Positions 2,456-18,921 of a stretch of DNA of 20,000 nucleotides are shown here, piece by piece. Both the position numbers and the translations under genes were made by a program. Below the pieces are notes generated by a model that did no database searches, was not told the origin of the DNA, and worked only from the letters and a program-made list of their open reading frames with translations. The stretch comes from an uncultured virus (IMG/VR IMGVR_UViG_3300038825_001787) (Duplodnaviria > Heunggongvirae > Uroviricota > Caudoviricetes): the IMG/VR virus record IMGVR_UViG_3300038825_001787. One strand, written 5' to 3'. How positions within the stretch are numbered: the first letter of the stretch is position 1; the number at the start of each line of letters is the position of its first letter.

Positions 2456-2737
2456 ATGGAAATCAAAATTAAAATGGAACCCGAAGACATACCAAAAATA
2501 TTGAAGGGGATTGGAAACGTCGAACAACCGGCAGAGTCTGTTGTTGAGAAACGTGCCAAAAGGGCCGACATTGGACAAAACAGAGTCCCCTGGTCGAAAA
2601 GAGAGAAGGCTTGGCTGAAAAAGCAGGCAAGACCAACCATTGATAACGGTCATCATCGGCAAGAATTGAAAGAAATGTTTGGCAATATCCGAACAGCGAA
2701 GTCAATAGATGCTTGTTGGAGAAGACTTACCAATTGA
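2456..2737 (+). CDS. Putative Myb/SANT-like HTH DNA-binding protein
   Basis: PWSKREKAWL...FGNIRTAKSIDACWRRL resembles a Myb repeat. Motif-linked start. Confidence 0.7.
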   Translation: MEIKIKMEPEDIPKILKGIGNVEQPAESVVEKRAKRADIGQNRVPWSKREKAWLKKQARPTIDNGHHRQELKEMFGNIRTAKSIDACWRRLTN

Positions 2738-2790
2738 TTGAGCATAACATAGTAAGATTAATTACTAACTATGTTTCCTCAATTTACTAG

Positions 2791-2991
2791 ATGACACTGA
2801 TGCCAAAGCAAAGTGAGAACCTGGGACTAGAAATCTCAGAGCCTATATACAGGCTGGCAACAAGCATATACGAAAAGCACAATTCCAAGGTCTTAGCAGG
2901 CAGTGGAAAATGGATGCCCACAAACGTAGCGGTTGACTTGGCAAAAAAAATGCTAAGTGAAACGAATGCTAGTCGGTCTAATACTAGATGA
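2791..2991 (+). CDS. Hypothetical protein
   Basis: 66-aa ORF with motif-linked ATG. Its stop overlaps the next ATG (ATGA). Confidence 0.6.
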   Translation: MTLMPKQSENLGLEISEPIYRLATSIYEKHNSKVLAGSGKWMPTNVAVDLAKKMLSETNASRSNTR

Positions 2992-4220
2992 GTAATATAA
3001 ACGAAAATCAAGGATACGCAGTTGAAGGAAGATTGAAAGAAACAGCCAAAGGGTATTTAGCCCTCTGGTCAATTAATGCAGGTAGGATGAGATATTCCGA
3101 CCTTGTTACTGTTGCTAAGCGCAATGGTTTAACACAGGGTCAGATACCGAAACTACGAACCGCAAAGAATGCTTTTGCAGTTGCAAAGGATACTATACTT
3201 AACTCCGCATTACCAACACTCTTAGAATTAGATGGTTGGGATGGAGCGGTCAAACAAAGTTTAGATGTTAAACATCTAAAAAGAGGAAATGAATACCAAG
3301 TCTCGGTTAGACGAGAAGGTAGAATGCATGGGAAGTTGCACAAGGAAAGTTCTCCAGTCTTTAGACTGGAATTCTCTCCTCCAGATGCCTTTGACCATGT
3401 TGCATGGGTACAAAACTACATGCGCTCTTTTTGGGATGCTGAATACATCAAAGAAATTGAAGCAGGTACTAAACAAAGACCTGTACCTAGTCAAACTAGG
3501 GTTTGTATACGTATAGAAGGCTATTGGGATGACAGCGATATTGACGTCGAGTTGATGTTGAGAGTCAGAGACCGAATAAGCCAAGCATTTGAAGATACTA
3601 TTGTTAGTATTGACGAAACGCTTTTGCGACAACACATTAAAGAGACATTGAAATCTTTAAACGGTATTAGTTTCCTTGCAGGCAAGGGGGCTACATATAT
3701 TCCCATTACAGACGAGGACAGAGATTCAAAATCTGCGTCTTTGGAGTCTATGGCTAATATTATCACCTCTTTTTCTAGAGGATACCAAACAACCGCAAAC
3801 GATGAAAACTACTATGACGAGAATGGCAAACCCATCAATCGTTATGGAACATCAAGTAATTTTAGATATCTAGGATACCTAGATAGCGAAAGAGAGATGC
3901 AGTACATAAGAGAAGATTTGGGTTCCAGTATTTCGAGAGAAATAGCGGAGTTCCAAGCAGAAGTCGTTAAGACTGCTGCCTCTTTTGATACAACTAAAGT
4001 CGAACTTTTCGAGAAGCAACTTACCAAATTGCAGAGAAAGAAAACTAATATTACTAAAAGAATCGGCAATATGCGCACAACATTGGGCGGAGAGATTCCT
4101 ATTCGTAGGAGACTCCATTCTGATGTTCAGCAAAGATTTGGTAGCCGAATCTCAAACATAACTCAGACCCACAATGCAGTTAGTACTACATTGATGAAGT
4201 TAACTGAGTTTGACAATTGA
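2988..4220 (+). CDS. Hypothetical protein, resembles DUF6744-like family, with C-terminal coiled coil
   Basis: 410-aa ORF. Patterns GYLALWS...GL...IP...AF and GISF..G.GATYIP were recalled from that family and not verified by search. Confidence 0.75.
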   Translation: MSNINENQGYAVEGRLKETAKGYLALWSINAGRMRYSDLVTVAKRNGLTQGQIPKLRTAKNAFAVAKDTILNSALPTLLELDGWDGAVKQSLDVKHLKRGNEYQVSVRREGRMHGKLHKESSPVFRLEFSPPDAFDHVAWVQNYMRSFWDAEYIKEIEAGTKQRPVPSQTRVCIRIEGYWDDSDIDVELMLRVRDRISQAFEDTIVSIDETLLRQHIKETLKSLNGISFLAGKGATYIPITDEDRDSKSASLESMANIITSFSRGYQTTANDENYYDENGKPINRYGTSSNFRYLGYLDSEREMQYIREDLGSSISREIAEFQAEVVKTAASFDTTKVELFEKQLTKLQRKKTNITKRIGNMRTTLGGEIPIRRRLHSDVQQRFGSRISNITQTHNAVSTTLMKLTEFDN

Positions 4221-4238
4221 GGCTAATGCCTCTTACTA

Positions 4239-4954
4239 GAAAGTAAATACAACTGATGCCCTTCGGGGCAAATGACGTATCGCCGAAAATTCCGGTAGAG
4301 CACGCTCTACAGGAACGGCTCATCCTCCGGAACTGCTTCAGGCTGCTGCGCAGACTACTGCGTATCTGAAGCCTTTACCCTAACATCCCTATCACCTTGC
4401 GGCTCCGCTGCGGTGAAACGGAATGTAAACGGGCACGCCTAAACTACAGTTTCCTCGAGCGAGTAAACTGGTTTAACGGCTAATCCTACGGAATAACAAT
4501 CAGGATTTAGTCCTGATAGTATGAGCCTATTTACCGCCTCTACCCTCATTGGGGTAACCCAATTAACCTTCTAAAGAAGGGAGGGCGAGAGGCTTCGGCT
4601 CCTCGGAACTACTACGGCACGAACCAAGATTGAGTTAATCAGTCAAGAGAAATATAAGTACCCGCGTACTGACATTTCACATGACTTACTCAATTTTCAT
4701 GACTTACCCTATGTAGAAACATAGATTTGAACAACTTGAGGCGGCTCTGCGCTGCCCTAAAGGGACATCAAATCTCTGCGTCTACCCCTAGTAAGTCACG
4801 AAAGTTCATACCTTGAGCCACGGTGGAATCCAGAAACAAGTCTTCTGGATTCTGCCCTGCAACTGTATGCTCTGCGGAACCCCGCATACAACGTTGCGGC
4901 TTGGCTCAACCGGTTCATCGCCAAGTTCCTCGGAAAATAGTTTTACTTTCACTA
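4239..4954 (+). ncRNA. Candidate large structured RNA, about 715 nt, family unassigned
   Basis: Bounded by ACTAG sites. No credible ORF. Dense hairpins, including TGCCC-TTCG-GGGCA at 4257-4270. Ends pair: GAAAGTAAA 4239-4247 with TTTACTTTC 4942-4950. Confidence 0.65.
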
Positions 4955-4983
4955 GAGCCTCGAAAGAGGAAGAGTTGATTGAC

Positions 4984-5376
4984 ATGATTGAAGAAAGAAA
5001 CAACATAGTTGACCAAGCAATTACTGATGTAGCACCCGCTACACCAATTGCTGAGCAACCCAAGAAAACAAAAATGGCGCCCATAACGAATGAAATATTT
5101 ATTCGTATGTGGAACCAATCTGAATATGTCAATGATGCAGCAGAGGCGATGGGTATGAACCCCGCTTCTGCAAGAGCAAGGGCCGCAAAACTGAGGGCTA
5201 TATTTGCGAAAGCAGGTGTAGAAATACAGTTGAAGAAACACCCTAAAGCACCAAGAAAGCAAAAGAAGTCGTTGGTCAATGACCTAGACGAACTTGAAAG
5301 ACTTGCTGCGATTGCTAAAGCATCATTACCATCAGAGCCAGCAACACAAAGTGCACCATCAGAGCAATCTGAATGA
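4984..5376 (+). CDS. Putative HTH-like nucleic-acid-binding protein, 130 aa
   Basis: Start moved to ATG 4984, which lies downstream of ACTAG 4951 and a purine-rich leader. FIRMWNQSEYVNDAAEAMGMNPASARARAAKLR is HTH-like and is followed by a basic patch. Confidence 0.7.
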   Translation: MIEERNNIVDQAITDVAPATPIAEQPKKTKMAPITNEIFIRMWNQSEYVNDAAEAMGMNPASARARAAKLRAIFAKAGVEIQLKKHPKAPRKQKKSLVNDLDELERLAAIAKASLPSEPATQSAPSEQSE

Positions 5377-5394
5377 AACACTTGTGTTCTACTA

Positions 5395-5949
5395 GAGAGA
5401 ACTAAAACACCGATGCCGAACAAGCATGTGACGTAAATTAGTAAATTAGAGATTACACATAGCAAGGAAGTCAAACTGATTTTCTGCTAAATCTAAATCT
5501 GCATGGTGATCCAAGCAAGTAATCACGAATGGAATAAATCCACTCGCTGATTTGTATAGGGCAGTTGCCCTACTCAAATCTTACCTGCCCAGGGTCACCA
5601 GCACAATTAGAATAAAGAATTCACATTCGTGAATTAAACTACCACCACATTAGAACGGTAGTCTGCCTTAGAATTAATTTTTTAACATCCGCAACTGGAA
5701 ACGTTCCGCGTGTCTTCACATTCACCTTTACAAAGTAAAGGCCGCACAATACTGTGCCACCAACAGTGAGGTAAAATCCTCACAACATTGGTTGAATGTT
5801 CCAAACACAGCGTCCGAGTTCCAATGCGGAACACCAAAAATCAATAAAAGTTAAACACTAAAACTAGGCAGCATTAAACTGCCAAAGTAAAGCGGCTTAT
5901 ATAAGCCCAATAGTAAAACTTGAAACACTAAAAACTAGAACTCTCACTA
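5395..5949 (+). ncRNA. Candidate large structured RNA, about 555 nt, family unassigned
   Basis: Bounded by ACTAG sites. No + strand ORF of 60 aa or more. Many hairpins joined by A-rich linkers. Ends pair: GAGAG 5395-5399 with CTCTC 5941-5945. Confidence 0.6.
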
Positions 5950-6025
5950 GATAGACCACCATATTTTATATTCATCACCATGAAAAAATAATGGTTTATA
6001 TGACAATCGGGAAAGACCGGTACCA
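5950..6025 (+). ncRNA. Possible 76-nt small RNA ending in hairpin-ACCA (not a cloverleaf tRNA)
   Basis: Lies between ACTAG 5946 and ACCAG 6022. Long interrupted hairpin (TAGACCA/TGGTTTA) plus ATCGG-gaaaga-CCGGT. Confidence 0.3.
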
Positions 6026-6026
6026 G

Positions 6027-6098
6027 ATGAACAAAACTAAACCACTACAACAACTCAATGCTGATTTCCTAAAAAAAGATTGGACGTATGAAAAATGA
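6027..6098 (+). CDS. Putative 23-aa peptide (MNKTKPLQQLNADFLKKDWTYEK)
   Basis: ATG directly follows hairpin + ACCAG variant. Confidence 0.35.
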   Translation: MNKTKPLQQLNADFLKKDWTYEK

Positions 6099-6110
6099 CG
6101 CTTTTAATTT

Positions 6111-6281
6111 ATGGACGCATGGATTAAAAATGAAAGTATACTTGTTGGAAAAGGCGACAGGGGTAAAACCCGGCTCTGTGGTCACAAGTTTTGCGTCGGA
6201 CACCATGAAAGAATGGAACACTATGCTGTGGGCCCGAGCGGTGACAGTCATATTGTTAAAAGGGGTGAGATTCCCCACTAG
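6111..6281 (+). CDS. Putative 56-aa Cys/His-containing protein (alternative frame: ORF 6088-6285)
   Basis: MDAWIKNESILVGKGDRGKTRLCGHKFCVGHHERMEH... ends on the TAG of the ACTAG site. The coding frame is ambiguous. Confidence 0.3.
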   Translation: MDAWIKNESILVGKGDRGKTRLCGHKFCVGHHERMEHYAVGPSGDSHIVKRGEIPH

Positions 6282-7514
6282 ATGAATATCAAATGGAAGA
6301 CAGAAGAGACGCGTTGTATCCATAAAGACCCACGGGACTTTAGCAGATGCAAAATTAAAGACGTTAAACCTGGAGAATACTTATGTGAACACCATAAGTA
6401 CGATCTCGCATCATTTGTAAATGACCCAACAGCCTGTATTGATATTATGGCTGAAAGGTTTCCAAAAAGACATCATCCTGCCTGTGACCGCAAAGGAGAA
6501 AATGACTGCGAATGTCATGACTACTCTAGAGGCGCAAGTATGATGATTACCATGAAGGCTGCTTTCAAAGAAAGCAAACTTCAGAGTAAACTATACCAAA
6601 AACACTTGAAAGTAACGATGGCTGATAAAGTCCGTCGAATCAAGAACTATTATAGGAATATAACAGAGGATGATATATATCTACCTCCCTATAGTAATTT
6701 TAGACAGTATAGATTTTTCACATGGGAACCAAAGAGTCAGAGAATCGTTGTCAAAGTATTGAAAGATAATGTAAGGACAAAGAAAATTCTGCTCAGTCAT
6801 CTACGAAGACTGGCACCTATACACGTGTATTACACAACAGGTCAATGGCTAAATCCGCAAGGAATTGGTCCTGACCCTGAATCACGTAAAGGTTTAGCCA
6901 AGATGCGAAAGAAAGGTTGGTGCGCTAAAAAAAGTAAGAAAGTTACTTTGAAGCGATACCATAACACCATGTTGAAACGAGATTTATATTTCGATATAGA
7001 TTACGACAACAAAGACTATCATCAAGGAATAAGGATGGCCGACGAACTAATACATGCAATAAATAAACACATTCATTGTTATCAGTTCAACGGCGTAAAA
7101 CAACAAATCGTATTTAGTGGAGGCAAAGGCTTCCACTTGATAATAAACGGATACTATGACGAAGCGTTTACTAGACCTAGTAAGCGTAAATTGTACGACC
7201 TATTGAGAAGAGAGGCTATAAAAAAAGGCGAAGATAAAAACGCCGCTTTCTTACGCTACTCTGTCAACCACGAAAACAAAAATGCAGCGATTGAAAACCA
7301 CTACAAAGACATAGTGGATATTCTGCAATACGAAACAGACCTTTTGTTAGATTGGATGGTTACATATGATAACCGTAGAATAATACGATTGCCTGGAAGC
7401 GTGCATGGAAAGTCCATGCGTGTTTGTAAGGAAATTAATTTTAGTGACGATAATGTTATTAAAAACCGTGCTGGAAAACCCGTTGGGTATGTTCCAGCAG
7501 ACCCCATTCCTTGA
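6282..7514 (+). CDS. priS: Archaeo-eukaryotic primase catalytic subunit (PriS-like) with Cys/His-rich N-terminal extension
   Basis: AEP motifs DLYFDIDYD, VFSGGKGFHL and DWMVTYDNRRIIRLPGSVHGKS, plus APIHVYYT resembling PriS P.HVYYS. Confidence 0.88.
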   Translation: MNIKWKTEETRCIHKDPRDFSRCKIKDVKPGEYLCEHHKYDLASFVNDPTACIDIMAERFPKRHHPACDRKGENDCECHDYSRGASMMITMKAAFKESKLQSKLYQKHLKVTMADKVRRIKNYYRNITEDDIYLPPYSNFRQYRFFTWEPKSQRIVVKVLKDNVRTKKILLSHLRRLAPIHVYYTTGQWLNPQGIGPDPESRKGLAKMRKKGWCAKKSKKVTLKRYHNTMLKRDLYFDIDYDNKDYHQGIRMADELIHAINKHIHCYQFNGVKQQIVFSGGKGFHLIINGYYDEAFTRPSKRKLYDLLRREAIKKGEDKNAAFLRYSVNHENKNAAIENHYKDIVDILQYETDLLLDWMVTYDNRRIIRLPGSVHGKSMRVCKEINFSDDNVIKNRAGKPVGYVPADPIP

Positions 7515-7523
7515 GGTTACTAG

Positions 7524-8060
7524 ATGACAAATGAAATTGAATTTTATGTTGATGGCTCTGCCATCAATAATGAGAATCCAAATGTACGAACTCTTGGAGG
7601 TATAGGTGTTTACAGACGCACTAACTCAGAGAACGGTATTAATATTTTAACTGCCCGACCAGATCAAGAATGGGCAATAAATGTTGATGACGGTGGCGTA
7701 GCGTTGAGGCGTGAAATCCCATTAGATTTGGGAAAAGTAACAAACAATACTACCGAACTGGCTGCAATATACTATGTTCTTCTGATAATAAAACTGAACC
7801 ATAAATATGACAATTGCATAATATACGGAGACTCGCAATACGCGGGTAACTTAGTATTTGGAAACTGGAAAGCAAAACAAAACAAGGAACTAGTTGCTAA
7901 GGTTAAAGCCCTGGCAAAAACAGTTCCTAATGTCACATGGGAATATGTGAAAGCACACGATGGCAATGTCTACAATGAATATGCAGACTACCTTGCCAAA
8001 TCTGGTGCATACAACAGAACCCCACTACCATTCGATGAATGGAAAGAAACGGAATTTTAA
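7524..8060 (+). CDS. rnhA: Ribonuclease HI
   Basis: FYVDGSA, TNNTTELAAI, IYGDSQYA and VKAHDGNVYNEYADYLAK supply the D-E-D-H-D catalytic set. Confidence 0.93.
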   Translation: MTNEIEFYVDGSAINNENPNVRTLGGIGVYRRTNSENGINILTARPDQEWAINVDDGGVALRREIPLDLGKVTNNTTELAAIYYVLLIIKLNHKYDNCIIYGDSQYAGNLVFGNWKAKQNKELVAKVKALAKTVPNVTWEYVKAHDGNVYNEYADYLAKSGAYNRTPLPFDEWKETEF

Positions 8061-8070
8061 TTCCTACTAG

Positions 8071-8862
8071 ATGAGTACTAAAAGAGAAAATCAAAAAATA
8101 CCCACACGAGAAATCAATGGTGTCGACATACCATTAACAAAGATGGTCGACGCACAAAAGATGCTGACATCTCAAAGAGATGCTGTTTCTAAACTATTAG
8201 CCACCATAAAAGGTGCTTGTGAAGAATACTCAGGTTGGACAAGAGAATTTAGCGATAGTGATTTAACCCCACTTCGCACGACGAACTTTGTCAAACTAGT
8301 AAAGCAATCTGAAACAGACTTGAATGTACTTCAAGTATGGGATGGACAAAAGTGGATAAATGTACAACTTACTAAAATTGTACTGGAACCGAAGGTAGAC
8401 AAAGATGTCAAACCTTCATCGAAACAAATAAGCAAGAAATCGCCAATAGAGGTTCACAGGACCCAGATGGCTAAGAAAAAATACAAAGACCTCGGAGACG
8501 GACTAGACTTCAAAACAAAGTACGGTGTCGAGATAATGTTACTTGCAATTAATTGCTTCAAAGAGGCATACCAAATGGAACGACAAAAAGGAGGAGACTT
8601 AGGGTCTTTGACTTTGTTCTGGGAAGACTGCACCAAATATGTTAGAAACCATCAGAGCGTTAGTTCCGTCCTTACACCTGGATGGAAAAATGCTTTGCTA
8701 AAGTCGTTAATTGACGACGGATGGATTCTTGGCAGAAAAGACAAGGCTTTGACCGTAAAACCTTTTTCAAAAGGTATCGAAGGTTGGCCTAGTGGTGGAA
8801 AGTTACATCCTACTGTACTTGGAGAAGCACCAATTCGTATTACAAAATATATGAAAAAATGA
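8071..8862 (+). CDS. Hypothetical protein
   Basis: 263-aa ORF with motif-linked start. Confidence 0.8.
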   Translation: MSTKRENQKIPTREINGVDIPLTKMVDAQKMLTSQRDAVSKLLATIKGACEEYSGWTREFSDSDLTPLRTTNFVKLVKQSETDLNVLQVWDGQKWINVQLTKIVLEPKVDKDVKPSSKQISKKSPIEVHRTQMAKKKYKDLGDGLDFKTKYGVEIMLLAINCFKEAYQMERQKGGDLGSLTLFWEDCTKYVRNHQSVSSVLTPGWKNALLKSLIDDGWILGRKDKALTVKPFSKGIEGWPSGGKLHPTVLGEAPIRITKYMKK

Positions 8863-8880
8863 AACATTTGTTTCTACTAG

Positions 8881-9048
8881 ATGAGTTATAGAAAAAGACA
8901 AAAAATACATAACATAGTCGAATGTCCTAATGTATGTTGTAAACATAATACACACATGAATGTAGATGAATTCAGGTGTGTCGATTGTGTCACAAGAATA
9001 TACAATATCAAACAAATGCTACAAGATTTGATGGATAACTTGGACTAA
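8881..9048 (+). CDS. 55-aa putative zinc-binding protein
   Basis: Not in the ORF track. MSYRKRQKIHNIVECPNVCCKHNTHMNVDEFRCVDCVTRIY... with motif-linked ATG. Confidence 0.7.
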   Translation: MSYRKRQKIHNIVECPNVCCKHNTHMNVDEFRCVDCVTRIYNIKQMLQDLMDNLD

Positions 9049-9105
9049 AGACAACAACTATAAACCCCCAATTTAGGGTTCATATTGTTACTAGGAGAAC
9101 TTAAA

Positions 9106-9540
9106 ATGACAAAGCAAACCAAATTAAGCGACTTCCTCAAGGGAGTTGCAGAAGAAGACGAAAAGCACCGCACACCGAATGCCGAAATTGAAGATAGGGA
9201 AGACTTTAAGGCTGAATTTGACACAGTATATGAGAACTATATTGTGGAAAGTTACACCTCAGATATCCCTAGCAATTTCGATGATAAAACAAACACAGTT
9301 GTGAAATTGACAAGCCCCGCTGGAGACAAACTCCAAATGTGGGTTGGAAGTTACGAACAAGACCACTTTCACCAGAAAGTTGCTGCTTGGGAAAAACAAG
9401 GTCATGAACTACCAGTGAAAATATCATTTGCACGAATCAAGGTGCCGTCAAAGAAAGACCCAAGTAGGTCATACAACAGACTGAAGATTCAGACTGTTGC
9501 TCTTGGCCCAGATGTGGCTCAAGAATTACTTACACTTTGA
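9106..9540 (+). CDS. Hypothetical protein, possibly OB-fold ssDNA-binding
   Basis: ATG 9106 follows ACTAG-GAGAACTTAAA, which contains an SD-like GGAG. Beta-rich pattern with an acidic N-terminal segment. The fold call is a guess. Confidence 0.75.
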   Translation: MTKQTKLSDFLKGVAEEDEKHRTPNAEIEDREDFKAEFDTVYENYIVESYTSDIPSNFDDKTNTVVKLTSPAGDKLQMWVGSYEQDHFHQKVAAWEKQGHELPVKISFARIKVPSKKDPSRSYNRLKIQTVALGPDVAQELLTL

Positions 9541-9829: not shown

Positions 9830-10699
9830 ATGAGTAACTTTGAAAGTGAAAATGAAATGGAGGAAAGAATGACAAGAAGATCCTGCTCGGATTGCGGATG
9901 CAAAATGAGTAGGGTACCTAAGAAAGGAAGGCCAAACAGAATCGGTTTGAGAACAAATGGTGTAAATATGCACTATATGTTAAAAACTGCTTTGTGGTTT
10001 GAAATAAACCAAGCATACCGAGGATTGTTGTGCCTAACATGTGCACAAATAAGACTTGGTAGAAAGTTTGTTCCAACCGATTTTAAGCCCGTACCAATTA
10101 ATTTTGCGAAGGGTGGAGCATTGGCTACACTGTTCCCAGGTGAATTTACAGCCCACATGGTTGCATTCGTTGGGGAAGAAACCGTAGAAGAGCAAGATGA
10201 AGCGAGAAGGCTTGTAGATGCTCACTATAAATCACTTGAATCAAAAAACACGACCCCTTCGAAAGAGGAAGTTGCTGTTGATTTAACTCCAGAAGAAAAT
10301 AATTCTGAAACTGAAACTGAAACTAAACCTAAAAGTAAAGGTAAGTCCAAGAAAAAAACTACGACATCGAAGAAAACCAAGAAAGCAATGGATGACCTCA
10401 AGAAAAATAAGAGAGTCTTTACTAATGCCATCTATGGTTGGGATGTCAAAGACAGAAAGTTGTACCCAAACTGGGATGAACAAAACAATATTGATTGGAT
10501 GAAAAAACAATTAGGCTTTGGAATACCTGCTGCAGAAATAGCAAAGACACTGAATATAAACGACTGTCGCGGAAAGCGTGGCGGTAAGTGGAATAGTTCT
10601 GGTGTATTGCGTACAGTCAAATACGACATCCATGCAGATAGGGATGAGTCTGAAGCACCAAGGTGGTTCAGAAAGCGTTCCGGTAACAGAATAAGATAG
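9830..10699 (+). CDS. Fusion of a phage-type Zn-binding domain and a serine-recombinase 'Recombinase' DNA-binding domain; no catalytic resolvase domain
   Basis: N-terminal CSDC...YML...LW...LLCLTC...RLGR...DF..VPIN. C-terminal YGW...LYPNWDEQ...G....EIAKTLN....RGKRGGKW....V.R. Confidence 0.75.
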   Translation: MSNFESENEMEERMTRRSCSDCGCKMSRVPKKGRPNRIGLRTNGVNMHYMLKTALWFEINQAYRGLLCLTCAQIRLGRKFVPTDFKPVPINFAKGGALATLFPGEFTAHMVAFVGEETVEEQDEARRLVDAHYKSLESKNTTPSKEEVAVDLTPEENNSETETETKPKSKGKSKKKTTTSKKTKKAMDDLKKNKRVFTNAIYGWDVKDRKLYPNWDEQNNIDWMKKQLGFGIPAAEIAKTLNINDCRGKRGGKWNSSGVLRTVKYDIHADRDESEAPRWFRKRSGNRIR

Positions 10700-11847: not shown

Positions 11848-12066
11848 ATGAGAGGAATAAAGACCCGAACCAGAGCACTTGATGCCTGCGCGAACATACT
11901 AAAGCAAACTGCTAGACCTATGTCTTCGTCAGAACTGATTGGTGCTATGATAAGTAAAAACCCTAGAAGTACAAGATGGGCGCCACAGGCGCAAGCATTG
12001 AGTAATTGGCTAAGGGGAGATCAAAGGTTTCAATCCTTTGGTAGAAAGCAGTGGAAACTAAAATAA
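11848..12066 (+). CDS. Winged-helix protein (HARE-HTH-like)
   Basis: ILKQTARPMSSSELI...ALSNWLRGDQRFQSFGRKQWKL matches the wHTH pattern. Confidence 0.72.
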   Translation: MRGIKTRTRALDACANILKQTARPMSSSELIGAMISKNPRSTRWAPQAQALSNWLRGDQRFQSFGRKQWKLK

Positions 12067-12230
12067 CCACTTACTAGATGAAGAAAATATACGGAGACAC
12101 TTACCTTAGTGTTGAAGAAGAATTCGCCGCTATAAACAAATTAGCAGAAATAAATGCTAAAGAGTTTTTAGTTGAAATAATACACTTATTTCCAAACAGT
12201 GGAAACTAAAATAACCACTTACTAGATGAA
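12049..12230 (+). repeat. 34-bp exact direct repeat (12049-12082 and 12197-12230) flanking a small ORF
   Basis: CAGTGGAAACTAAAATAACCACTTACTAGATGAA occurs twice. Confidence 0.95.
12078..12209 (+). CDS. 43-aa hypothetical protein
   Basis: Not in the ORF track. MKKIYGDTYLSVEEEFAAINKLAEINAKEFLVEIIHLFPNSGN, with motif-linked start and the stop in the next hairpin. Confidence 0.6.
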   Translation: MKKIYGDTYLSVEEEFAAINKLAEINAKEFLVEIIHLFPNSGN

Positions 12231-16610: not shown

Positions 16611-17189
16611 CTACTAGAATGGAAATCAAAATAGACATTAGTGTAAAACAAATACTAACTCTATGCGGTATACAACAAGAGATTGACAAAAAGGAAGTCG
16701 CTAGACTTCGTAAAAATGCCAATAACCGAAGATACCGTGAAAGAAACAGAGAAATAATCAATGCTAGAAAAAAACTGTATCGCGAAAAGAATCGTGAGAA
16801 GATAAAAGCAAGAAGACGCGAGATTCACAAAGCGAATCCTGAGAAGAAGTCGATGTCTGACCGCAAGTATTACGAAAAGAATCGTGAAAAGATAATTGCA
16901 AAAAGACGTGAGTGGGATGAAGCAAATCCTGAGAAAAGAAATGCGTATGACCGCAAGTATTACGAAAAGAATCGTGAAAAGATATTAGCGAGAAAACGCG
17001 CACGCTATCACGCAGACAAAGAGGACTAATCCTCTACTAGAATGGAAATCAAAATAGACATTAGTGTAAAACAAATACTAACTCTATGCGGTATACAACA
17101 AGAGATTGACAAAAAGGAAGTCGCTAGACTTCGTAAAAATGCCAATAACCGAAGATACCGTGAAAGAAACAGAGAAATAATCAATGCTA
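16611..17189 (+). repeat. 156-bp exact direct repeat (16611-16766 and 17034-17189)
   Basis: Identical from CTACTAGAATGGAAATC to ...ATCAATGCTA. Confidence 0.95.
16619..17029 (+). CDS. Basic helical repeat protein (YREKNREKI-type repeats)
   Basis: 15/30-aa periodic repeats, with a 37-bp exact internal repeat at 16858-16894 and 16948-16984. Confidence 0.8.
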   Translation: MEIKIDISVKQILTLCGIQQEIDKKEVARLRKNANNRRYRERNREIINARKKLYREKNREKIKARRREIHKANPEKKSMSDRKYYEKNREKIIAKRREWDEANPEKRNAYDRKYYEKNREKILARKRARYHADKED

Positions 17190-17805: not shown

Positions 17806-18921
17806 ATGAGTAAAGAATTTGAAACAAAAATAATATACAAGAAAACCAGCACAGGCAAAATCCAGCAATGGCAAGCCTGGGTTGAAAAGACTGAAACTGG
17901 ATATCTGTTAAAAGTTAGATCGGGTCAAACCGATGGTAAACTTACAGAAACAACAGGACAGGTTATTGATGAAGGTAAGCAAAAGCGTACCGCAAAGGAG
18001 CAAGCAGTTTTTGAGGCTAACTCAAAAGTTAACAAGAAACTAGATGAAGGATATTCTGACAGCATTGAAAGTGCTAAGAATTACGTCAAGTTGCTACCGA
18101 TGCTGGCACATTCTTTTGCTAAGCGAAAGCACAACATCAACTATCCTGCAATTGTTCAGAGAAAATTTGACGGTGTACGATGTCTAGCCATCCTAAAGGA
18201 TGACGGCACTGTATCACTAATGTCAAGAAAAGGAAAAGAATTTCCTCACATGAATCATATCAGAAAAGATATTGCTGCCAATAACAGTGATACTACTTTG
18301 ATACTTGATGGTGAATTATATTCTGATACCTTGTCTTTCCAAGTACTGGTTGGACTTGTAAAACGTGTTACACTGAAAGAAGGAAATGATGAGCAAATGC
18401 TCCAAGTTTCCCTACGTGTATACGATTGTATAAAATTAAACGAAGAACCTGGGTTTCAACAAAGACACGAGATGATTGCCAAAGTAACAGATGGCGCAAA
18501 TTATCTTTCTTTAGTTGAAAACTTTACAGTGGAATCTGAAAAGGAAATCCACGAAGCACAGGCTCGATTCGTAGAAGAAGGCTATGAAGGTGCTATGGTT
18601 AGAAACATAACCGGAGCATATGCCATCGGAAAAAGAAGTGCTAATTTACAGAAAGTGAAAACTTTCTTAGACGGCGAATACGAAATCGTCGGCTTTAACC
18701 AAGCCTCAGGAAATGACATTGGAACGGTTATCTGGGTGTGTAAAACACCGGAAGGAAACCAGTTCAACGTCAGACCTCGTGGTACGAGAGAAGTAAAAAG
18801 AGAACAATACGAAAACGGTGATTCTTACATTGGGCGACATTTGACTGTCCGATATCAAGAATTAACCGATGACGGTGTTCCAAGATTCCCAGTGGGAATA
18901 GCAATTCGTGATTACGAATAA
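17806..18921 (+). CDS. lig: ATP-dependent DNA ligase
   Basis: Motif I QRKFDGVR, motif III ILDGELY, motif IV GYEGAMVR, motif V LQKVK and C-terminal VPRFP. Start moved to 17806 (ACTAGA-ATG). Confidence 0.93.
   Translation: MSKEFETKIIYKKTSTGKIQQWQAWVEKTETGYLLKVRSGQTDGKLTETTGQVIDEGKQKRTAKEQAVFEANSKVNKKLDEGYSDSIESAKNYVKLLPMLAHSFAKRKHNINYPAIVQRKFDGVRCLAILKDDGTVSLMSRKGKEFPHMNHIRKDIAANNSDTTLILDGELYSDTLSFQVLVGLVKRVTLKEGNDEQMLQVSLRVYDCIKLNEEPGFQQRHEMIAKVTDGANYLSLVENFTVESEKEIHEAQARFVEEGYEGAMVRNITGAYAIGKRSANLQKVKTFLDGEYEIVGFNQASGNDIGTVIWVCKTPEGNQFNVRPRGTREVKREQYENGDSYIGRHLTVRYQELTDDGVPRFPVGIAIRDYE

Follow-up and report, generated by a model that had tools for sequence, protein, structure and literature searches.

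A conserved folded RNA element with a kink-turn-like 5′ module, predicted to belong to an uncatalogued family, upstream of a viral primase gene

It is rare to find large, intricately folded non-coding RNAs (ncRNAs) whose function is unknown, and every new class has given rise to a line of work. GOLLD and ROOL, which phages often carry, are, like OLE, RNAs of several hundred nucleotides (nt) with many covarying helices and no known enzymatic role (PMC12286853). Here we describe an element that shares these traits, termed unit B, in a 20,000-nt stretch of DNA (the window) from an uncultured virus of the Caudoviricetes (IMG/VR record IMGVR_UViG_3300038825_001787). Comparison with related viruses indicates that unit B, a 555-base stretch, is an evolutionarily conserved folded RNA element and one of two related copies in the window, the other being termed unit A (Table 1). 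The family differs from GOLLD, ROOL and OLE in its tandem arrays of diverse paralogues, a junction word common to protein genes, a terminal helix and a 5′ kink-turn-like module, and the Rfam models of the three gave no match even at an E-value of 10.

Folding of unit B gave a minimum free energy (MFE) of −155.5 kcal/mol, as against −101.4 ± 5.8 kcal/mol in 100 shuffled sequences (z = −9.35). Relatives were taken from a profile scan that returned four IMG/VR loci and the best 80 of 219 metagenome loci (given L numbers below), which fall into primase identity bands of 83–97%, 63–68%, 50–53% and 43–47%; primase relatives in metagenomes amounted to 148 proteins. Full-length unit B is recognisable by sequence in the closest band only (L010, L007, L011, L001 (= L002) and L008, at 88–92% identity). 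Its identity is ~70% in L037 and L032, partial copies occur in L013, L012 and L006, and in relatives with a primase 63–68% identical just the ends are recognisable by sequence. The RNAalifold consensus of a seven-sequence + strand alignment contains 126 pairs in 22 helices, with 94.9% of 860 cells paired. Twenty-five pairs have changed on both sides, compared with 10.7 ± 2.3 when partners were shuffled (none of 500 shuffles reached 25) and with 1–6 in controls in which the partners were slid. Compensatory changes lie in the helices at 5549–5580 (helices 8 and 9), 5618–5636 (10), 5744–5757 (16) and 5759–5792 (17 and 18), while those at 5725–5741, 5867–5883 and 5894–5907 are invariant or nearly so. 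An earlier reading made from the sequence alone (hereafter the sequence-only reading) had listed a series of hairpins in this stretch, all of which are present and lie within the seven-sequence consensus. The hairpin at 5744–5757 bears a conserved AUAC loop. The two hairpins of the 3′ domain are GGCAG-CAUUAAA-CUGCC (5867–5883) and GGCUU-AUAU-AAGCC (5894–5907), and this domain is kept also in relatives with a primase just 63–68% identical. Unit B contains no open reading frame (ORF): its longest open stretch is 58 of 185 codons in the standard code, and recoding any single stop as sense (four stop-codon schemes in all) still gave none. All three stop codons are in use in the neighbouring genes.

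The 5′ core of unit B looks like a kink-turn. According to an excerpt of one account of the motif, a kink-turn consists of a regular helix, usually a 3-nt bulge, tandem G:A and A:G pairs and a further helix; a C at position 3b or a G at 3n favours ion-induced folding, and −1b:−1n is C:G in most natural examples (PMC6298567). The module described here, composed of YGA, a tetraloop hairpin and NRUGACG, starts six to twelve bases into the unit, and its arrangement appears to match this definition, sharing with Kt-7, the U4 5′ stem-loop and box C/D kink-turns the helix, the 3-nt bulge, the tandem G:A/A:G, the further helix and a C at 3b. In unit B, C5410-C5411-G5412-A5413 would form the non-bulged strand, UGC 5414–5416 and GCA 5424–5426 the capping helix (C-helix), and UGU 5427–5429 the bulge, followed by the tandem G:A partners G5430-A5431 and then by C5432-G5433. 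In an alignment of 51 distinct core sequences (A7), the G-A before the hairpin and the U-G-A-C-G after a three-base gap are invariant, every row has the three-column bulge (columns 50–52) between the C-helix and the GA, and the G and A of both strands (columns 32, 33, 53 and 54) are invariant in 51/51, as tandem G:A/A:G pairing would require. The C-helix contains 36 double-changed cells, compared with 5.5 in shuffles (0/500 as high), with 96.7% of cells paired and four of five pairs changed on both sides. In 48/51 sequences the C that precedes GA is paired with the G that follows GAC (4b:4n is C-G in 44 and U-G in four), and 3b is C in all 51; −1b:−1n is C:G in 38/51. The caps are mostly GNRA or UUCG tetraloops, the commonest forms being GGC-GAAA-GCC (33 of 123) and UGCCC-UUCG-GGGCA (19 of 123), which makes them an RNA-level, strand-specific signature. 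Such a recognisable, putatively protein-binding motif offers an immediate experimental handle. The kink-turn here is just a motif inside an RNA of 0.12–1 kb.

Box C/D small RNAs (sRNAs) carry a C box near the 5′ end and a D box near the 3′ end, together with a terminal stem and guides, and measure 50–70 nt in archaea. The module words CUGA and RUGAxG, which we take to resemble D and C boxes, occur here in the order D-like, hairpin, C-like in a unit of 555 nt, with no terminal C/D box pair and no guide arrangement, and we therefore rejected a box C/D sRNA. The only snoRNA row in the window, a chance-level match to SNORD26 on the − strand at 4925–4996 and thus outside unit B, reached 16.7 bits where the gathering score is 44 (E = 4.7); relatives gave no snoRNA rows at E ≤ 0.1.

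A covariance model of the module (R1) gave 140 matches at E ≤ 0.01 in 641,726 bases (window plus loci), all of them on the + strand; 51 of the 140 are the training sequences, and among the rest are some almost identical copies that come from contigs which overlap. Within the window the model matched the starts of unit B and unit A only. A cruder regular expression for the module gave 160 matches on the + strand and 13 on the − strand in 501,726 bases. Since all R1 matches lie on the + strand, the strand is settled at the level of the family. In 11 of the 28 units listed, an ATTAG at the 5′ end lies opposite an ACTAG at the 3′ end, which makes a U:G on the + strand. The sequence-only reading had called this stretch a second large ncRNA, and that part of its interpretation fits, given the lack of an ORF, the conserved and covarying fold and a gene-strand-specific 5′ module common to unit A and 140 sites; its alternative, that the A-rich repeats are origin iterons, found no support, as described below.

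Unit A is the most strongly folded block of the window (z = −13.5). It has its own kink-turn-like module at 4253–4277, with the hairpin UGCCC-UUCG-GGGCA at 4257–4270, and carries two C(UUCG)G loops on the + strand and none on the − strand. Relatives of the 63–68% band have two units per locus, framed as A[CT]TAG-AGAG ... CUCUCA(A)CUAG, and the two align with unit A and unit B, respectively. In 24 distinct sequences, units A and B have the frame in common, as well as the motifs at the 5′ and 3′ ends. Features shared by the two types are the 5′ core AC-YGA-[hairpin]-N-R-UGACGU, a GCG(G/A)-hairpin near the 3′ end and the 3′ tail GAAA..UAG..[3′ arm]-C-ACUAG. By these comparisons units A and B are paralogues of one predicted, uncatalogued RNA family. 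The search against Rfam 15, which the sequence-only reading had put forward as a check, bore this out: no catalogued family matched the window at gathering score, including HEARO, group I and II introns, RNase P, tmRNA and riboswitches; a permissive scan of 4150–6350 gave chance-level matches only (E 1.5–8); and seven related loci gave just a tRNA and a sub-threshold overlap with it. Comparisons with GenBank phage records by blastn (4200–6300) and tblastn (primase) gave no match, an exact-pattern scan of IMG/VR for the GGC-GWAA-GCC module returned none, and literature searches on the junction word, on kink-turn RNAs of archaeal viruses and on structured RNAs of marine viromes turned up no account of the family.

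In the 43–47% band a tandem array of units fills the ORF-free space upstream of the primase gene. L074 contains eight tandem units of 131–622 nt between 847 and 4000, each made of a purine-rich arm straight after YAG, the core and the complementary arm, which is separated from the next YAG by two or three bases; the shortest of them (1974–2104, 131 nt) may define the minimal core. L069 and L075 of the same band have about nine to ten core-model matches per locus, which were not inspected unit by unit. Overall, relatives have between one and about ten cassettes at each locus, in gene orientation and mostly just upstream of the primase gene. Covariation between units is seen in the arms: AAGAG/CUCUU, AAGGA/UCCUU, AACUG/CAGUU, AGGG/CCCU, AGAAG/CUUCU and, in unit A, AAAGUAAA/UUUACUUU. 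In ten hand-delimited units, whose boundaries were read by hand, matched arms form on average 5.2 base pairs (bp), compared with 3.7 bp for mismatched combinations (permutation p = 0.0002); an automated search for the 3′ partner of each unit did no better than shuffled arms. The family is diverse and multi-copy, and provides more than 100 natural sequence variants for structure determination.

Unit B itself is closed in the same manner. The register common to the family pairs A5396–G5399 with C5941–T5944, so that the 5′ arm begins immediately behind YAG, and C and then ACTAG (5946–5950) come after the 3′ arm. In the RNAalifold consensus the closing register is slipped by two, with CTAG 5392–5395 paired to CTAG 5947–5950 and GAGA 5397–5400 to TCTC 5942–5945. 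The pairing first proposed for the ends, GAGAG 5395–5399 with CTCTC 5941–5945, is possible and coincides with the family-wide register except for its first pair, which the latter lacks.

The boundaries of the units coincide with those of the genes. The word ACTAG occurs 73 times in the window, compared with 34.8 expected (0 of 200 shuffles reached 73), and 57 of the 73 are on the + strand. At 31 window sites, for example 1615, 2451, 6277, 7519, 9825, 13962 and 17366, Y-T-ACTAG-(A)ATG precedes an ORF of at least 35 amino acids (aa). Nearly every gene start of the window has this form, preceded by a hairpin of variable sequence. Upstream of the 31 ACTAG-ATG sites we found no other conserved signal at TATA-like, −35/−10 or Shine-Dalgarno positions. 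The 36 bases before the word usually contain a hairpin that ends 0–3 bases short of it, with a mean MFE of −7.4 kcal/mol compared with −4.1 kcal/mol at random places; 68% of these segments reach −6 kcal/mol or better, compared with 25% of the background. The stop codon of the preceding gene often lies within or near this hairpin. Units A and B start exactly at the position that ATG takes in a gene, and the next ACTAG forms the end of each. Virus lineages have different forms of the word (ACTAG, ATTAG, CTTAG, CATAG/CACAG (CAYAG) and ACCAG), and in a complete 140-kb distant relative CAYAG-ATG is confined to 47–91 kb on the + strand. A tRNA can occupy the same frame: in the 50–53% band (L034, 697–773; also L039, L041, L042 and L033), a tRNA-Lys(CUU) cassette consists of TACTAG, a 5-base leader, the tRNA with encoded CCA, and the AATAG-ATG of the next gene. 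A σ70 promoter scan of 3900–6500 gave fewer promoter-like sites than shuffles, none of them sensibly placed; four terminator-like sites on the − strand in that scan were rejected as merely the unit's hairpins. Near-exact repeats of junction hairpins together with the first codons of neighbouring genes were observed at 12051–12077 and 12199–12225 and at 16613–16643 and 17036–17066 (GTGGAAACTAAAATAACCACTT-ACTAG twice; ACTAGAATGGAAATCAAAATAGACA twice), which points to local cassette duplication.

Two groups of described systems resemble this arrangement. One comprises punctuated polycistronic transcripts (T7 RNase III sites, mitochondrial tRNA punctuation and rRNA processing stems). The likeness lies in the hairpin after every gene, the ncRNAs and tRNA in series, and unit ends that pair like an rRNA processing stem; the constant element here is unlike theirs in being a fixed 5–7-base word rather than a hairpin, in abutting the start codon and in varying between virus lineages. 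Minimal initiator promoters (baculovirus late TAAG, poxvirus late TAAAT and the yeast mitochondrial nonanucleotide), which are used by a virus- or organelle-specific polymerase, also have a conserved word of very few bases that, in many genes, includes or adjoins the base where transcription starts.

Taken together, these features lead us to an account to which we give an even chance: unit B is a released, end-paired ncRNA cassette of an uncatalogued family, made at ACTAG|A, probably bound by a kink-turn protein and acting in trans early in infection. The early and replication genes would be expressed as units whose first base is the one behind the junction word. Such units could arise if transcription starts at a minimal promoter of the initiator type, or if an endonuclease cuts a long transcript. 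Because the word abuts the start codon, a start or cut at ACTAG|AUG implies leaderless mRNAs, which would end in a 3′ hairpin, and the same event at ACTAG|A would free unit B as an RNA of ~555 nt with its 5′ end in the terminal helix and a short 3′ tail, C-ACUAG. The kink-turn would then recruit a protein of the L7Ae kind, or make a tertiary contact, to give a stable particle that acts in trans in early infection. Its role, the weakest step, can be guessed from the constant position of the cassettes next to the genes for primase and RNase H: it may concern genome replication, or the capture of an RNA-binding factor of the host. In this last respect ColE1 RNA II offers a comparison: it is a structured primer RNA of about 550 nt beside replication functions, whose persistent RNA-DNA hybrid at an origin is cut by RNase H. 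Unit B has a similar length (~550 nt) and lies near a primase gene, with an RNase H gene two genes downstream, but multiple tandem copies do not fit such a primer. More broadly, and with a good deal of doubt, we propose a punctuation code in which a lineage-specific word of 5–7 bases marks the first base of each early-gene mRNA, of the tRNA precursor and of one to about ten kink-turn cassettes, is read by a co-evolving viral polymerase or endoribonuclease, and delimits cassettes that might be new trans-acting ribonucleoprotein scaffolds tied to the start of replication. As unit boundaries are common to neighbouring genes, mapping RNA ends would also show how the presumed leaderless messages are made with neither a ribosome-binding site nor a visible promoter.

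Several observations weigh against this account. The interior helices derive from just seven full-length unit B sequences at three levels of divergence, and unit B is G-poor (16.6% G). Its − strand folds well too (z = −8.15), with 181 consensus pairs of which 36 show double changes, and among the 100 pairs predicted on both strands the + strand has 16 A:C cells against six G:U, A:C on one strand being G:U on the other. As this wobble signal in the interior leans to the − strand, the + strand call relies on the 5′ module and on homology to unit A. The kink-turn of unit B has A:U beside the bulge (as has that of unit A) rather than C:G, and its C-helix is only 3 bp long. The junction hairpins fold equally well on both strands and, lacking a strand bias, could act in DNA. 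A scan of the 31 window ORFs, most of which have no family assignment, revealed neither an RNA polymerase nor an endoribonuclease nor a protein that binds kink-turns, and none of the 31 matched the L7Ae family. Six RNA runs contain parts of 3000–8000, two of them oligo-dT; in the four RNA libraries that were aligned as assembled contigs, the contigs cover genes and units alike, carry no information on strand or ends, and could include DNA. Two contigs from two studies both begin at 4972, where strains differ by the presence of unit A, so that we read the shared start as an assembly break and not as an RNA end.

The cassettes occur in a family of tailed marine viruses that are uncultured; complete contigs related to them measure about 140 kb. 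The complete 140-kb distant relative (G001; L086–L092) has terminal repeats and a primase 37% identical, and encodes PolB, GroEL, an MCM-like helicase, two RNase H proteins and TerL. A similar gene set has been described for magroviruses of marine archaea (PMC10768690 and an excerpt of PMC5434244). G001 gave no R1 match, so its resemblance to magroviruses does not settle the host of the window virus. A scan of genome contigs for the host gave only a weak Streptomyces fragment, and cluster names gave no organism. A search of G001 for the PF00940 RNA polymerase gave no match and was uninformative, as control genomes were silent too.

Four rivals were considered and ranked in the order cis-acting leader or spacer, mobile cassette, DNA-level origin and − strand RNA. 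It is unlikely, in our judgement, that unit B is a structured spacer or leader that stays unreleased in a polycistronic early transcript, where it would control translation or stability of the next gene, which in several relatives is the primase, or insulate neighbours. Its position agrees with such a role: of the 55 loci that extend 1500 bases or more upstream of the primase gene, 47 have the core there, the closing helix is placed where ordinary genes have the junction hairpin, and the ACTAG-ATG of the primase is directly abutted by unit B in L037 and by an A-type unit in the group of 51% identity. However, the type of unit next to the primase varies by lineage (B, A, unit C or the short units of L074), 18 of 123 modules lie downstream of the primase start (105 upstream), a tRNA occupies the same frame, and as many as ~10 units in a locus of 9 kb, or the eight arranged in tandem in L074, are hard to square with a single leader.

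We consider it quite unlikely that unit B is a selfish or mobile cassette that recombines between viruses at junction words, with an RNA or DNA fold serving mobility. Segments of unit A are 87–97% identical in loci whose primase is only 51–52% identical (L036, L040 and L039), a sign that these segments were exchanged between viruses or are under extreme constraint. The presence or absence of units A and C is bounded precisely by junction words; L037 and L007, for example, lack unit A, with edges at these words. Copy number ranges from one to about ten, the junction hairpins are strand-neutral, and a weak serine-recombinase-like match lies at 9830–10699. Against this, homologous exchange needs more than a word of five bases, the arrays have no linked recombinase, both the tetraloops and the kink-turn signature belong to RNA, and unit B tracks the primase phylogeny, with ~90% identity where the primase is 83–97% identical and only the ends recognisable at 63–68%. 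In integrons, cassettes are moved by the tyrosine integrase IntI at attC hairpins with conserved core sites. A cassette of that type was rejected here, because no such integrase is present among the 31 ORFs of the 20-kb window and a single word follows the hairpin, with no paired core sites.

That the block acts as DNA, with A-rich repeats as protein sites, seems to us improbable; in this reading it would be an origin of replication or some other structure of single-stranded DNA next to the primase. It lies directly upstream of the primase and RNase H genes, in a region with a local GC-skew reversal (4000–6000), and both strands fold well. The A-rich words do recur: the repeats that the sequence-only reading noted at 5853–5867 and 5923–5938, with AACTAAAACAC at 5400–5410, are present, and ACTAAAA occurs three times in unit B compared with 0.2 expected (mononucleotide shuffles, p = 0.001). 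Plain ACTA is not enriched inside the unit (7 compared with 4.15, p = 0.12). CTAG 5864–5867 is kept in 7/7 aligned sequences, and ACTAG 5934–5938 is ACATAG in the six others of the seven, so that one of the two internal ACTAGs is not conserved. These observations also bear on the suggestion of the sequence-only reading that hairpin-less ACTA/ACTAG copies inside the unit might be decoys for a factor that recognises the junctions. What argues against iterons is that these are two-copy direct repeats and not an array. The best direct repeat consists of 18 nt at 5846 and again at 5916 (83% identity), an 8-nt unit occurs 2.1 times in tandem, and unit B lacks the three or more direct repeats of about 17–22 bp that define iterons. 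In addition, all 140 R1 matches to the 5′ module lie on one strand and none on the other, its GNRA and UUCG caps matter in RNA, and ten tandem copies, as well as copies away from the primase, are unsuited to a single origin. Finally, a functional unit B RNA transcribed from the − strand, antisense to the genes, is scarcely credible: the − strand is G+U rich, has 16 G:U cells in the shared helices against six on the + strand and yields a larger consensus (181 pairs compared with 126; −120.4 compared with −89.9 kcal/mol), but the kink-turn-like module and the homology to unit A and 140 sites, the C(UUCG)G loops of unit A and the U:G at ATTAG/ACTAG ends all belong to the + strand, and the 3900–6500 scan gave no promoter-like site at the right place on the − strand.

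Table 1 Features of unit B and neighbouring elements in the window.
Feature	Positions	Strand	Remarks
5′ junction word ACTAG	5391–5395	+	Unit B begins at A5396, where genes have the A of ATG
Closing helix, 5′ arm AGAGA	5396–5400	+	Helix 1 of consensus
A-rich linker AACUAAAACAC	5400–5410	+	First ACUAAAA copy
Kink-turn-like module	5410–5433	+	R1 match 5391–5434, 39.1 bits, E = 5e-07
Two-part hairpin GATTTG..TAGGGC / GCCCTA..CAAATC	5549–5580	+	Helices 8, 9; compensatory changes
Hairpin AATTCAC / GTGAATT	5618–5636	+	Helix 10; two pairs changed on both sides in L037 and L032
Three-hairpin domain inside covarying stem	5725–5792	+	Helices 14–18; hairpins 5725–5741, 5744–5757, 5759–5792
3′ domain	5853–5938	+	Linker AAACACUAAAACUAG, two hairpins, linker AAACACUAAAAACUAG
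3′ arm CUCU(C), one-base linker, 3′ junction word ACTAG	5941–5950	+	
Paralogous unit A, including 5′ word	4235–4955	+	ACTAG, AAAGUAAA ... UUUACUUU, C, ACTAG; R1 match 4235–4278, 35.1 bits
130-aa ORF between units A and B	4984–5376	+	Conserved together with the units in relatives
Unit C, optional third cassette between ACTAG words	5951–6281	+	Absent in L037 and one RNA-run contig (joint 5935 to 6276)
Archaeo-eukaryotic primase (AEP) gene	6282–7514	+	PF01896; RNA cassettes precede the primase gene across the virus family
RNase H gene	7524–8060		Two genes downstream of unit B
ATP-dependent DNA ligase gene	17806–18921		

The window reads as part of a tailed-virus genome with a GC content of ~39% and every credible gene on the + strand. 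A family scan of its 31 ORFs left most without an assignment, and a tRNA scan of the window found none. Two ORF-free blocks were seen, unit A (4240–4955) and unit B (5396–5950), followed by unit C. Unit C has no kink-turn module, and its 65-aa ORF (6088–6285) is absent in three of seven relatives (L001, L010 and L008) and shifted in frame in others. The model of the 130-aa protein encoded between units A and B has a confident three-helix core resembling a helix-turn-helix, with a best Foldseek E-value of 0.37, to LysR-type DNA-binding domains; no family or PDB sequence match was found for it. A 410-aa upstream protein, likewise with no PDB sequence match, resembles only DUF6744 by language-model and fold look-alikes.

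These viruses are found in many marine sequencing runs, and the DNA of the window is present in 14 DNA runs from nine of the 12 studies listed. Two oligo-dT marine RNA libraries (X16 and X17; window 2500–9500) contain a third of the sampled words of 3000–8000, one contig of X16 being 3.6 kb long. Presence in oligo-dT libraries could reflect polyadenylated or A-rich-primed viral RNA, or DNA carry-over; the higher contig depth over 5773–6649 in an oligo-dT run allows no interpretation. Elsewhere in the window, at 2143–2440, the ACTAG-ATG at 2148 opens just 25 codons before a TAG stop, and the gene's conserved portion, 2216–2440 (PHROG matches; T4 y05I-like C-terminal domain), lies in a frame other than that of the ATG at 2148, a mismatch that could stem from a frameshift, a sequencing error or a different start.

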